IMG/VR virus record: IMGVR_UViG_2703718862_000005
DNA from: a virus
Taxonomy: Duplodnaviria; Heunggongvirae; Uroviricota; Caudoviricetes
Strand: one strand, 5' to 3'
Length of the DNA: 64,000 nucleotides
Position numbers: made by a program. Position 1 is the first letter of the stretch, and every line of letters starts with the position of its first letter. Shown piece by piece: positions 28,401 through 37,400 of the stretch.

Positions 28401-31400
28401 TTATATAACGATAAAGAACAGGGAGTGAGTTATGTCCAAAAATGACCGAATGGTGGGCATCAGCCGCAGAACACTCGTTAAATCAACCGCGATAGGTTCT
28501 CTGGCGCTGGCTGCAGGCGGTTTTTCTTTACCGTTCACCCTGCGCAGTGCAGCGGCAGCGGTACAACAGGCCAGCGAAAAAGTGATCTGGGGTGCCTGTT
28601 CCGTCAACTGTGGTAGCCGCTGTGCACTTCGTCTACATGTTAAAGATAATGAAGTCACCTGGGTGGAAACTGACAACACCGGCAGCGACGAGTATGGCAA
28701 TCATCAAGTACGCGCCTGTTTGCGTGGTCGATCCATCCGTCGGCGTATTAATCATCCCGATCGCTTGAATTACCCAATGAAACGCGTGGGCAAACGCGGC
28801 GAAGGCAAATTCGAACGGATTAGCTGGGATGAAGCCCTGGATACTATCGCCAGTAGCCTGAAGAAAACCGTCGAACAATATGGCAATGAGGCTGTATATA
28901 TTCAGTACTCTTCGGGGATCGTTGGCGGCAATATGACCCGCTCTTCGCCATCAGCCTCGGCGGTCAAACGCCTGATGAACTGCTACGGCGGTTCACTCAA
29001 TCAGTATGGCTCCTACAGCACCGCGCAAATTTCCTGTGCCATGCCCTACACCTACGGCAGTAATGATGGCAACAGCACCACGGATATTGAAAACAGCAAG
29101 CTGGTCGTGATGTTTGGTAACAACCCGGCAGAAACCCGCATGAGCGGCGGTGGCATCACTTATCTTCTTGAAAAAGCGCGCGAGAAATCGAACGCCAAAA
29201 TGATTGCTATCGATCCGCGATATACCGATACGGCTGCTGGTCGTGAAGATGAATGGCTCCCTATTCGCCCGGGCACCGATGCCGCGCTGGTTGCGGGTAT
29301 TGCCTGGGTATTGATTAACGAAAATCTCGTTGATCAACCTTTTCTCGATAAATACTGCGTCGGCTATGACGAAAAAACCTTACCCGCAGATGCACCCAAA
29401 AATAGTCACTATAAAGCCTATATTCTTGGTGAAGGTGATGATAACACAGCGAAAACGCCGCAGTGGGCTTCGCAAATTACCGGTATCCCGGTAGACCGTA
29501 TCATCAAACTGGCGCGTGAAATTGGCACAGCAAAACCCGCTTATATCTGCCAGGGCTGGGGGCCGCAACGCCAGGCAAACGGCGAACTGACTGCACGCGC
29601 TATTGCTATGTTACCTATTTTGACGGGCAATGTCGGCATCAGCGGCGGAAATAGTGGCGCGCGTGAATCGACCTATACCATTACCATAGAACGCCTGCCG
29701 GTGCTGGATAATCCGGTCAAAATGTCAATCTCCTGCTTCAGCTGGACAGATGCTATCGATCATGGTCCGCAAATGACGGCAATCCGCGACGGCGTCCGCG
29801 GCAAAGATAAACTGGATGTGCCCATTAAGTTCATCTGGAACTTCAAGGACTTGAAGCGGACCCTTAGTAGGCCTGAGGTCCTGCATTGAGTCAAGGACTT
29901 TGTGTCAGGCTTTGTGTCAGCCTTGTGTCATTAGACGGGATGTCTAGACGGCTGGTCAGCCCCCCGGTGGCCTCGGTCTGGACTTGAGGCGGGCTATGGG
30001 GGAAGTCTGCTGGCTTAATGTATTAGATGGTCATTCACATTTTTCTGTCAGAAACCATCGGTCCCACTGTGAGTCCAAACCTAAGCCCCCAGAAGCCCAC
30101 CCACAGCCTTAGACAGAGTGTCGAATACATTCACACCGAGTCGACCGGAGAGGACCATATAGAGACCCACAGAGAGGAACACGAGTTTATAGACCAGAGT
30201 CAGGAGGGACCTTAGGTCTGCGGAAGTCATAGACATAAAGCCTCCTTCGTCTATTGTACTACTGCACTAGATAACTAGTACAAAACAAAGGTCCAGACCA
30301 TTGGTCCAGACCATAGTTATCATGATGATTGGAACGATTGAACGGTAGGCACTTTACGTCTCACCCACTGTTCAGCTTCAGCCAGTGACCAGCATAGCCG
30401 CTTATAGACTCTGCGTGTCATCCAGATTGTTGCTTGATATCGTCCACCCTCCACAGGCTGTATAGATGTCTTAATCACAGTGACAGGCCACCACCTGAAG
30501 TCCTGCTGATATTCAGTCCAGACTTACCTCTGCTCATGGTCTTACCTCCCTCGGTCTCCTGACCTTGGGTATCGACTACAGCTTGCTGAGCGTCATCTGG
30601 AGGAGCTACAGGAGGAGCTACAGGAGGCGGGACCGAAGCCCCACCTTGAGTCCCACCACCACCTGTCAGGCCCTTGGCGATGGACCTGAAGCCTTTACTA
30701 ATGCTCTTACCCATTGGTCTTACGCTTCGGTCTTGGTGAACTTCAGGCGTTTGACTACAGGCAGGACGGCAGTAGCTGAGCCAGTGCCCATCTTGATGGT
30801 CGTAGCAGCTTCAGCGACAACGAACACTTTACCGAGGATTTCCAAGTCGTGGGACTGAGAGTCGCCATCACGTGAAAGGACGACCGTAATATTCTCGCCA
30901 TCGTGACGGAAGCAACCGAAGCTCAGAGCCGTGAAGCGTTTAGCCAGCATGAATACACCCTTGTCTTCACCGTTGTAGTAGGCGATGTCTGTTCCCAGCA
31001 TATCGACGATAGCGTCTTCACCGGAGAAGCCTTGCTTAGCAGCCAGACGGGACAGTGCTTTCAGTTGGCTCTCATGAGCGATAATACCGTAGTCAGACAC
31101 CTCAGAACCGAAAGAAGACTCTGTGTTCTCATACAGAGCGTCCATGATAGCGTCTGCCTTAGCGGTCAGGCTACCAGTCAGGACAGGAAGCTCTACGGTC
31201 TTCAGCAGCTTAGAGGATTCCAGAACGTCGACCATGCGAGCGTTGATGGTACGGACCACATTCTCACAGATGTTCATAGCGTCCTGCTGAAGTGTGCCCT
31301 GAGTGAATCCGGTGGATGACTTGGCGTCCCAGAGCTTGGTCTGCTCAGAGATGAGAATAGCCTGCTCGATTGGTTCGACCACGATTTCTTGTCCAGACGG

Positions 31401-34400: not shown

Positions 34401-37400
34401 TGCATACAGTAGCGCGACAGGATGTGACTCACAGGCTGGACTGGATGTCAAGGATTAAGGCGACCCTAGGAATTAAGGAAGTATATATAAAGAGGGAGGA
34501 CCGGATGTGACTCACAGGCTGGACTGGATGTCAAGGACTAAAGACGCCTCAGGAATTAAGGAAGTATATATAAAGAGAGACCAGAGGCGACTCACAGTTA
34601 AACAGGAATGTCAAGAGGAGACCATAGGAATTTGGAGTACTGGAGTTAGGGAACCAGTTTAAATAAGACCACATACAGACTTAGAGTCTGACAGCCGAAG
34701 GCGAACCAGTGGGCCTATAGTCAGGAGGGATTATGATTATTATCACCCTCCCTAACTTCAGTCAGACTTCAGTGACCCAAGGTCTCAACCATCAAGCCGT
34801 ATATGGTCTCCACCTTGGGTCTTCCTACTTAAAGTAAAGCTGTCTTCAGCACCTCAGCCAGCCTACCAACAGCGTGTCCTTTCCCGTACAGGTCATACGT
34901 AATTGACTGACTGCTATGGCCTAAGATGCCCTGAGCGTCCACCAGATTGACTCCACGCTCTTTCATTCGGGTCGCCAGCCAATGCCTCAGACTATGGAGA
35001 GAAACGTTCTCAGCGTCTCCCAGTGCCTCAGTCAGGACCCTAGAGTTAAACCAGCTAGAGTAGGCGCTCGGAGTCATCCCGAAGAGAGGACCGCCGTCGT
35101 CAGGCTGCGTGTCTACCCATTCAAGGAAGGACTTCAGGTCGAACCCACAGGCCCCATCGGTCAGCGGTACAAGTCGGACTGAATGTTTGTTCTTCACAGA
35201 CTTACCGTCCCCATCTTCATTGATGTCGATGCAGGTTAAACCGTTGTCTAAGGTGACAATGTCACGTTTAGTCAGGTGGCAGACTTCAGCAGACCTCGCG
35301 CCAGTGACCACAGACACCAGAGACGCCCATCTACGGGCCTCAGAGGTCGTGTGAGCCGTGTGTCGTGTGAACTGATACTCAGACTCAACACGGACCAGAA
35401 GTCTCTCCAGCTCCTCGTCTGTGAACGCTCTGCGCTTGGAGTCGATATCCTTGGTCAGCTTCATCCGTTCAATAGGGTTGCGGCCCTCAAGTTGCCCATT
35501 CATCAGGCCATAATCAAGACACATCTTCGCCTTAGTCAGCAGCTTGTTGATTGTCGATGGTCTCACCTCAGCAGCCAGCATGGAGTCCCTGACAGCCAGC
35601 CACTCAGAGCGGGACATCAGGTCCATGTCTTCAGGTAAGAACCGAGAGACGGTATTCAGTGAGGACGACAGGTCCTTGTAGCTGGAGGACTTCAGGGTCT
35701 GGACCTTCTCAGCCAGCAGCGAGGACACTAGGCTTGAAAAAACCACAGATGGCTGACGCTCCTGTGTGAAAACTGCTGGTCTATCCCCCTGCTCATTCTT
35801 CAGAATTGACGTAGAGTCGCCTATAGTTGAGTAATCAGTATGGTTATTATCATCAATCAGCTTAATCAGACCAGAGGCATCACCAGTGTCTACCCTCTGC
35901 TGTGCTGCGGTCAGGACTTCAAGCGCTAACCTTATGCCCTTCTGCTGGTCCAGACTCAAGGCTTGCGTAGCGGCTAGCTCCTTCAGGTTGGACTTCTCGT
36001 CCACCAGAGTAGCGACCTCAAGTCCATTCCAGTAGTCATCACTGGCGTCTGTCAGGAACTGCTCAGCCATAGACCGGAGGTGGTCCGTAAGCTCCTGTAG
36101 CGAGACATCAGGCCTATCCAACATGAAGGACTTAGCTGTGGCTGCAAGCTCTCTCTGACGCATTGTGGCTACTCTCCTGTCTGTGCTTCGGGTCGATACT
36201 GAAAGAAACGGGATGGTCTGTCCCTTGAGTCTGAAGCGGATAGTATATCGACCATTGGCTCTACGGACTAACTGAGGCTTAGCTACGCTGAGTAGATTGA
36301 TTTGTGTCAGCCTTGTGTCAGGACTTGAGGTGCAGACTTGCTGATACAGATAGGGAGACCCAGAGAAAGAACTGGATGGATATACAGTATTATCATGGTT
36401 AATGTCAGTCATATCAGGACCTTAAGTAGCATTGAGTCAACTACTTCAAGTCCATCCATCCGTCTGACAATGGAGTCCATCTGGAACTACGCGGGAAATA
36501 CCCTCGTTAATCAGCATTCTGACATCAACAAAACGCATGAAATTCTGCAGGACGAATCGAAATGCGAAATGATTGTGGTCATCGAAAACTTTATGACCTC
36601 ATCGGCAAAATATGCCGACATTCTGCTGCCAGACCTGATGACCGTTGAGCAGGAAGATATTATTCCTAACGACTACGCCGGTAACATGGGATATCTCATT
36701 TTCCTCCAGCCTGTCACCAGCGAAAAATTCGAACGCAAACCGATTTACTGGATCCTGAGTGAAGTCGCGAAACGTCTTGGACCTGACGTCTATCAAAAGT
36801 TCACTGAAGGTCGCACGCAGGAACAATGGTTACAACATCTGTACGCCAAAATGCTTGCCAAAGATCCGGCGTTACCGTCTTACGACGAACTGAAAAAAAT
36901 GGGTATCTATAAGCGTAAAGATCCCAATGGTCATTTTGTCGCCTACAAAGCATTTCGTGACGACCCCGAGGCAAATCCACTTAAAACACCTTCCGGTAAG
37001 ATTGAAATTTATTCCAGCAAGCTGGCGGAAATTGCCCGTACCTGGGAACTGGAAAAAGATGAAGTGATAAGCCCACTGCCAGTTTATGCCTCTACCTTTG
37101 AAGGCTGGGACTCCCCTGAACGTAGAACCTTCCCACTGCAACTGTTTGGTTTCCATTACAAATCCCGTACTCACTCGACCTACGGCAATATTGATCTCCT
37201 GAAGGCTGCCTGCCGTCAGGAGGTGTGGATCAACCCTATAGATGCGCAGAAACGTGGGATTGCCAACGGCGATATGGTGCGGGTGTTTAACCATCGTGGC
37301 GAAGTTCGGCTACCAGCCAAAGTAACACCACGTATTCTCCCTGGAGTTAGCGCTATGGGCCAGGGAGCCTGGCACGAGGCCAATATGTCTGGCGATAAAA

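Follow-up and report, generated by a model that had tools for sequence, protein, structure and literature searches.

Several known phage satellites share one trait or another with the element described here. The cf-PICIs (e.g. EcCI2) encode their own major capsid protein along with all other head and packaging functions (portal, protease, connectors and terminase), and take only tails from their temperate helpers. P4 (helper P2) and PLE (helper ICP1), the latter with a virulent helper phage, have late genes that are switched on by the helper, through transcription factors or derepression, and remodel or exploit helper capsids by combining the helper capsid protein with satellite size-determining scaffolds and their own replication proteins. 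PICMIs of marine vibrios are integrative satellites of about 6 kb that exploit virulent phages, are not known to contain capsid genes and carry Fis/AlpA-type regulators and a primase. On the helper side, T7 is reported to package plasmids carrying a T7 origin (promoter) and the concatemer junction (Chung and Hinkle, 1990). Here we analysed a 64,000-nucleotide stretch of DNA, IMG/VR virus record IMGVR_UViG_2703718862_000005 (hereafter the window), in which the gene ynfE is split by a 6.6-kb island. With a probability of roughly 0.7, we interpret this island as an integrating satellite that exploits virulent T7-like coliphages belonging to the K1F group (Kayfunavirus), built as a miniature T7-type genome. 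An initial annotation, made from the sequence alone, had suggested a satellite or hijacker, or else an infection-triggered cassette, and the satellite suggestion is supported by a capsid gene, a homolog of the virion protein gp7.3, a homolog of the T7-group concatemer junction and phage promoters.

Compared with these systems, the island combines a presumed virulent T7-like helper, promoters for the helper polymerase, helper-type genome ends and a capsid gene without the remaining head module. Like cf-PICIs it encodes a major capsid protein, but it is only 6.6 kb long, relies on promoters for the helper RNA polymerase (RNAP) and has genome ends of the helper type, and neither portal, prohead protease, head-tail connectors nor terminase subunits were identified among its nine open reading frames (ORFs) in Pfam, PHROGs and NCBIfam. 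Domains characteristic of classical PICIs and SaPIs (master repressor, primase/replicase with origin, TerS, Ppi, Rpp) were not detected in the island, whose sole DNA-binding gene is a swappable KilA-N, Rha or AP2 module, and matches to the P4-like alpha primase-helicase, Sid, Psu and Delta/Ogr-type activator were likewise absent from it. In contrast to the transcription factors or derepression that activate P4 and PLE, the island carries promoters for a helper-encoded polymerase. Size and a (here presumed) virulent helper are shared with PICMIs, from which the island differs in helper type, induction and the lack of Fis/AlpA-type regulators and primase; it is set apart from both PLE and PICMI as these are described. 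The plasmids packaged by T7 have the same two cis requirements as the island and offer a precedent for the replication and packaging of such DNA by a T7-type phage, but are laboratory constructs, whereas the island is a natural integrating element with capsid and virion genes.

The reading frame of ynfE breaks off at 29842/29843 and continues from 36489, which places the insert at 29843-36488 (6,646 bp, counting one core copy). Joining 28432-29842 to 36489-37504 in silico yields an 808-aa ynfE ORF without a stop, which reads KFIWN/YAG over the core and shares 69% identity with the adjacent ynfF. This exact deletion bears out the initial annotation, which had described an island splitting ynfE collinearly with ynfF, flanked by a 15-bp direct repeat and 20-bp arm repeats, with a 527-aa tyrosine recombinase at its right end and about nine minus-strand genes. 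Both types of repeat were located, with the 20-bp arm repeat TTTGTGTCAGCCTTGTGTCA near both island ends (29911 and 36301), as were the recombinase and eight further ORFs, every one of the nine being co-oriented on the minus strand (Table 1).

The same annotation had reported two T7-core sites on the minus strand, interpreted as T7-type promoters, and no phage RNAP gene in island or window. The core ATCACTATAGG is indeed present at 34379-34369 and 33950-33940. A position weight matrix (PWM) was derived from EcoDS1 (Kayfunavirus), in which 11 phage promoters are annotated, and the scan of both strands of the 64 kb that had also been proposed recovered these two sites (Table 1), the best other position reaching 13.6 bits and genuine EcoDS1 promoters scoring 28.6-32.5 bits. 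The site at 33958-33936 is identical in 25/25 nt (CTAAACTATCACTATAGGGAGACCA) to the phi10 promoter directly upstream of capsid gene 10A in EcoDS1 and to its counterpart in K1F; the EcoDS1 and CR44b records label this 25-nt sequence 'promoter'. Furthermore, a 41-nt query around this site matched 525 phage records at about eight places per genome, including K1F, EcoDS1, CR44b and many other Kayfunavirus. For the site at 34387-34365, transcription is predicted to start at 34370, with the ATG of p122 35 nt further on. An exact T7 promoter 23-mer had no match in the window even with three mismatches allowed, and the identity of a promoter of T7 proper (Teseptimavirus) was ruled out, as CGACT is not present at -12 to -8. 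Because this specificity region reads ACTAT and ATTAT in the island and CGACT in T7, the cognate polymerase is expected to be K1F-type rather than T7, and T7 itself is probably not the helper. By sequence, the scores and matches thus mark both sites as genuine, full-length single-subunit phage RNAP promoters with K1F/Kayfunavirus specificity: the initial annotation is borne out as to the promoters, but not as to their assignment to the T7 type. A third T7-core-like site (CTGACTATAGG, 34724-34714) was no promoter by PWM and was reassigned to the right-end hairpin element described below. When 22 EcoDS1 proteins, including the RNAP, were compared with the whole window by tblastn, the only match was the gp7.3-like ORF, in agreement with the lack of a phage RNAP gene noted before; polymerase, portal, terminase and tail genes are absent from the 64-kb window. 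Scans for host promoters and terminators in turn gave nothing above chance.

Phage-type genome ends constitute a second line of evidence. The left end first became apparent through a local alignment to the EcoDS1 terminal repeat, and BLAST of this region against all phages returned mostly Autographiviridae, with hits lying largely close to genome ends. An nhmmer profile of the concatemer junction, spanning the pre-repeat sequence together with the initial ~85 nt of the terminal repeat, was then built from six phages of several genera (EcoDS1, K1F, P1723, T7, Ninurta and BHUENT8) with the island left out. This profile had a single match in the window (30070-29971, minus strand; 37.9 bits, E 5.2e-11), compared with 3.4 bits for the next match and a maximum of 9.0 bits in 40 shuffles. 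Where the T7 junction reads ATAAAAATCTGAGTGACTA before the cut and TCTCACAG...CCCCATAG after it, the island reads ACAGAAAAATGTGAATGACCA and TCTAATAC...CCCCATAG, and the spacing to CCCCATAG is 26 nt in the island and K1F alike. The left junction is thereby established by sequence homology, and the cut is predicted between 30028 and 30027. Relatives of the island contain the junction homolog at 31-45 bits, with weaker matches in the most divergent ones (L140, 13.9; L151, 9.6).

Further, a hairpin element at 34752-34716 is homologous to a conserved Kayfunavirus element located between promoter phiOR and gene 19.5. It was found in 157 phage records, mostly Kayfunavirus and near the right genome end, matches phiYIO1-1 in 32/32 nt (E 2e-6), also aligns to EcoDS1 and is kept in relatives of the island. 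In phiYIO1-1 (L130:40046-40077), this element is inverted with respect to other Kayfunavirus genomes and adjoins an HNH endonuclease insertion; it seems that the element works in either orientation or is mobile. A tentative right boundary of the terminal repeat was also identified at the opposite end of the island: a phage-only profile scored 12.6 bits (E 0.005) as the top match in the window, with 4.7 bits for the next and a shuffle maximum of 9.7, and the match is kept in ynfE-type relatives. If both boundaries are real, they delimit a repeat-like region of ~322 nt that contains attP and is split by integration.

The island also encodes putative virion proteins. p331 had no match in Pfam, PHROGs, NCBIfam or PDB sequence searches, and a structure model based on 13 close homologs was unusable (pLDDT 45). 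With distant homologs from a search of a representative library, modelling succeeded and gave a confident structure that matches solved capsids and contains the N-arm, E-loop hairpin, P-domain spine helix and A-domain, which identifies p331 as a predicted HK97-fold major capsid protein. Its sequence is not gp10-like, and gp10-type capsids are not its closest structural matches. An Ig-like domain, assigned in PHROGs chiefly to virion proteins, is present in one distant homolog. PGAP names some homologs of the capsid protein and p163 'peptidase M16 family protein' or 'toprim domain-containing protein' (H3, H15, H147, H183); in view of the HK97 fold, and of Pfam scans in which no such domains appear, the labels seem to be spurious. 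The adjacent p79 shares 37% identity with EcoDS1 gp7.3 (E 1.4e-6) and scores 17.6 bits against Pfam VirionAssem_T7, under its 25-bit cut-off. In the T7 group, gp7.3 has a role in host range/adsorption and virion assembly. p163, the gene of which always lies upstream of the capsid gene and which has a constant length of 163 aa throughout Enterobacterales, is a possible scaffold. It was also considered as a homolog of the helper scaffold gp9 or of gp14, and both candidates were rejected (probabilities 0.4% and 1.5%).

Table 1. Features identified in and around the ynfE island (window coordinates; aa, amino acids).
Feature	Position	Strand	Evidence or remarks
attL core AGTTCATCTGGAACT	29828-29842		Within ynfE codons K-F-I-W-N; 15-bp direct repeat partner of 36474-36488
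Left arm repeats, 3 copies, TTTGTGTCAG-type	29899-29930		Repeat families D6/D9; candidate integrase arm sites
T7-group concatemer junction homolog	29971-30070	-	Pre-repeat ACAGAAAAATGTGAATGACCA, then terminal-repeat-like start TCTAATAC, CCCCATAG at +27
p51, small hydrophobic protein	30081-30236	-	ORF list; no family match
Terminator-like stable hairpin with U-run	30290-30312	-	Terminator scan; fold -16.6 kcal/mol, z -4.3
p52, small basic protein	30320-30478	-	ORF list; no significant family
p79, homolog of T7-group virion protein gp7.3	30475-30714	-	phrog_1320 E 1.8e-11; 79 aa
p331, predicted HK97-fold major capsid protein, orphan family	30720-31715	-	Structure model; 331 aa
p163, helical charged protein	31791-32282	-	Always upstream of capsid gene
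p55, small protein	32379-32546	-	ORF list; no family; candidate excision cofactor by position only
KilA-N domain DNA-binding protein	32548-33306	-	PF04383 E 1.3e-9; phrog_129; 252 aa
Untranslated leader, ~630 nt	33307-33935	-	Two 44-nt repeats (33438-33481, 33634-33677); variable
Phage RNAP promoter CCTAAACTATCACTATAGGGAGA, Kayfunavirus type	33936-33958	-	PWM 31.6 bits; predicted +1 at 33941
p122, first gene under a phage promoter	33967-34335	-	phrog_23123 E 1e-8
Second phage RNAP promoter ACTTGATTATCACTATAGGGGAA	34365-34387	-	PWM 21.5 bits; T not C at -11
Tandem 83-nt repeats, ~2.3 copies	34411-34597		Families D1/D5; candidate origin or binding array
Hairpin element GGAGGGTGATAATAATCATAATCCCTCC	34716-34752	-	Homolog of conserved Kayfunavirus element
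Tyrosine recombinase (integrase)	34829-36412	-	PF00589 E 1.8e-13; phrog_1 E 3e-42; 527 aa
Right arm repeat TTTGTGTCAGCCTTGTGTCA	36301-36320		20 bp; second copy at 29911
Terminal-repeat right-boundary-like sequence TTCTTTCTCTGGGTCTCCCTATCTGTATCAGC	36340-36371	-	Resembles K1F TCTCTGAGTCTCT / ATCTGTATCAG; tentative
attR core AGTCCATCTGGAACT	36474-36488		15-bp direct repeat; exact deletion restores ynfE

Whole-island blastn, likewise proposed in the initial annotation, gave no match against 50,697 phage records (E 1e-5), and tblastn of the capsid, gp7.3-like and p163 proteins against phages also returned nothing. The DNA that the island has in common with phages is confined to short cis elements, which were revealed only by targeted searches. 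p122 has weak matches to hypothetical proteins of virulent podophages.

As in satellites generally, the island contains an integrase and att sites and no RNAP, DNA polymerase, portal, terminase or tail genes, and a packaging signal is represented by the junction homolog and the right-end hairpin, with the right boundary being tentative. As predicted from the sequence, its layout mirrors that of T7, with the repeat end followed by an early int and then by phage-promoter-driven genes in one direction. We propose that genes behind the phage promoters are silent in the uninfected cell and that, upon infection, the helper RNAP would transcribe the genes for p122, the KilA-N protein, p55, p163, the capsid protein, the gp7.3-like protein and p52/p51. 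Int, perhaps together with a small induced protein acting as directionality factor, would excise the element, and excision would join its ends and thereby rebuild a phage-type terminal-repeat region of ~320 nt that includes attP. Since T7 origins are promoter-dependent, the helper replisome could copy the element from its phage promoters as origins and generate concatemers, which the helper terminase would cut at the junction and package. The DNA might enter small shells that are formed by the satellite capsid protein on the helper portal, or it might be packaged as concatemers of about six units in helper-sized heads. Six units of 6,646 bp amount to 39,876 bp, near the genome lengths of K1F (39,704) and EcoDS1 (39,252), and relatives of 6.3-6.8 kb give similar multiples; this agreement may be a coincidence or a hint of packaging in helper-sized heads. 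Helper tails and the satellite gp7.3 would complete the particles. In a new cell, the repeat end would enter first as in T7, the host RNAP would read int, the first gene, and the element would integrate into ynfE. Interference with the helper is likely, as a prediction of this model.

Several observations weigh against a functional satellite. The island has no recognisable gene for an excisionase, a replication protein, a portal or the redirection of terminase, and p163 has no similarity to the helper scaffold gp9. Weak points of the model are also that a foreign capsid protein would need to be compatible with the helper portal, and that excision would have to keep ahead of the rapid breakdown of host DNA by T7-like phages. 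At 12.6 bits the right-boundary match is weak, and it falls short of significance in the subfamily inserted at tRNA-Gly; in a ynfE-type relative from strain 14EC047 (L128:1547-1640, compared with 30319-30704 of the window) most of the gp7.3-like and p52 region is gone, so the gp7.3-like and p52 genes are not universal in the island family. In addition, neither a free, a circular nor a packaged form of the island was found in public collections, and the attP junction 30-mer was absent from metagenome, genome and viral collections in an exact-match, insensitive search, the limits of which mean that the satellite model is weakened rather than refuted. Contigs of island size were considered as free forms and rejected, as all of them represent integrated copies on chromosomal fragments, and matches to an attP 21-mer came from unrelated metagenome-assembled genomes in a number close to our chance estimate. 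IMG/VR holds three island contigs, the identifiers of which suggest prophage calls in isolate genomes.

The lack of a packaged form accords with a cassette that serves defence only and is never packaged. Here, the promoters would act as an infection sensor, the foreign capsid protein, a decoy gp7.3 and the KilA-N protein would poison helper assembly or abort infection, and the integrase would merely reflect how the cassette arrived. Phage-RNAP promoters would provide the strictly infection-dependent expression needed for this purpose, the KilA-N region has a weak match to the candidate defence family PDC-S22 (E 6e-7), and a DUF4145 gene takes the place of p122 in the other subfamily. Nevertheless, we regard such a cassette as unlikely, as it leaves unexplained the junction/terminal-repeat homolog and the right-end hairpin, their conservation in all relatives, and the T7-like co-orientation with int beside the repeat end, and PADLOC detected no known defence system in the island. 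As satellites commonly defend their host as a by-product, defence may be considered a sub-function of the satellite rather than an alternative to it.

Alternatively, the locus could be the non-functional, decayed remnant of an integrated T7-like (temperate-like) phage with a chance collection of genes and cis sites, as might be suspected from its T7-group promoters, end sequences and gp7.3 homolog and from several copies with IS66/IS3 insertions. This is highly improbable when set against the compact, intact layout of 6.3-6.8 kb in 310 E. coli genomes and other genera, the swapping of modules, and promoter sets that vary by lineage and suggest selection; moreover, fragments of other T7-like genes are absent, and a capsid protein that resembles gp10 neither in sequence nor in its closest structural matches would not be expected of such a remnant. 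Encapsulins and phage capsids share their fold, so the fold alone cannot discriminate between a capsid and an encapsulin-type nanocompartment that serves the host and resides on an ordinary integrative island with incidental phage-like motifs. However, a cargo or targeting-peptide gene is not evident, the gene lies behind phage promoters and beside the gp7.3 homolog and the packaging junction, and the Ig-like domain of the distant homolog points to virion proteins, making a nanocompartment barely credible.

The satellite reading is further informed by the distribution of the island. The module of capsid and p163 genes is present in 310 of 5,426 complete E. coli genomes (~6%), in every case on the chromosome, and the 6.3-6.8-kb layout with intact ORFs recurs in these genomes and in other genera with at least two integrases and att sites. 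Homologs of p163, always 163 aa long, are encoded in Enterobacter, Citrobacter, Salmonella, Shigella, Photorhabdus, Yersinia and Kluyvera. The ynfE subfamily is mosaic: its end modules are constant, the DNA-binding gene encodes a KilA-N, Rha, AP2 or other protein, and the two promoters, hairpin element and junction homolog are kept in all copies. The tRNA-Gly subfamily has a different integrase and a DUF4145 gene in place of that for p122, and is located beside the ETT2 locus (e.g. in O26:H11 str. 11368). Several copies contain insertion sequences of the IS66 family (ISCro1) or IS3 (H2, H4, H19, H25; L136:8591-11206; L151:3009-5321), often between the DNA-binding gene and p163, so that some copies are probably inactive.

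Salmonella pathogenicity island SPI-15 of S. Typhi seems to belong to this family. The published description is of a 6.5-kb island that lies near glyU and codes for hypothetical proteins (PMC10373206), and the literature treats it as a pathogenicity island whose function is unknown. The element in GCA_001104705.1 (L138:3510-9900) abuts tRNA-Gly(CCC) and contains genes for int, DUF4145, Rha, p163 and a 350-aa capsid protein, as well as the junction homolog; it differs from the window's island in integrase, att site, first gene and its double promoters. The latter form two tandem pairs (L138:6024-6073 and 6585-6634), each consisting of a T3-like followed by a Kayfuna-like promoter, and no exact phage counterpart was found for the T3-like half. 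Tandem pairs are also present in L137 (10553-10502; T3-like and Kayfuna-like), L136 (13241-13188) and L125 (5043-4993), and the main promoter of L140 is of the -11T type, like the first site in the window. By contrast, a relative at the ynfE site with a capsid protein of 41% identity contains K11/SP6-like ACACTATAG sites instead, the K11/SP6-like promoters being those of L151 (2383-2440, 5454-5590). The specificity regions of relatives thus comprise T3-like ACCCTCAC, Kayfuna-like CTATCAC and K11/SP6-like ACACTATAG types. As promoter type co-varies with island lineage, the promoters are likely under selection to match particular helper polymerases, which suggests that promoter arrays set or broaden the helper range. 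Extending this, we tentatively consider, at slightly less than even odds, an Enterobacterales-wide class of miniature T7-type satellites that includes SPI-15 and is defined by a switch operated by the helper RNAP, promoter arrays setting the helper range, a terminal repeat split over attP and an own small HK97 shell built on the helper portal.

The 83-nt units contain AT-rich blocks TATATATAC and TTGACAT motifs, lie immediately upstream of the first phage promoter and differ in copy number between relatives. Within the leader, the 44-nt repeat forms an AACCC...GGGTT hairpin, and in the relatives L125 and L128 it lies inside the coding gene WP_000199921.1; the leader therefore looks less like a dedicated RNA than like a scar left by recombination of alternative modules. 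A dedicated origin formed by the leader repeats was considered and found unsupported, the repeat being coding in relatives and the region mosaic. Rfam had no matches on the island, leader included.

Among virulent phages, those related to T7 have been studied best, and therapy cocktails often include them. If the satellite reading is correct, promoters for the helper polymerase would provide a direct, hard-to-evade switch for sensing the helper, a foreign capsid gene would prove able to work with a T7-type portal, terminase and tail hijacked from the helper, and how susceptible bacteria are to therapeutic phages of the K1F/T3/K11 type would depend in part on such elements. K1F-type phages used against K1 E. 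coli, and T7-like typhoid phages, may differ in efficacy as a result. The family furthermore gives S. Typhi SPI-15 a candidate function, and its promoter, junction and capsid gene could serve as a compact natural chassis for DNA packaging with T7-type phages.

An element in ynfE is listed in a TIGER-based catalogue that gives no functional analysis of it (Mageeney et al., 2020; PMC7192596), and T7-type helpers go unmentioned in a commentary on satellite diversity from December 2025. No description of a satellite of T7-like phages of this kind was found in the literature covered, which excludes subscription-only and very recent papers, and the island is apparently undescribed in this role. Outside the island and unrelated to it, the window contains an open frame of ~2,810 aa on the minus strand (~45000-53439), ending near 53439.

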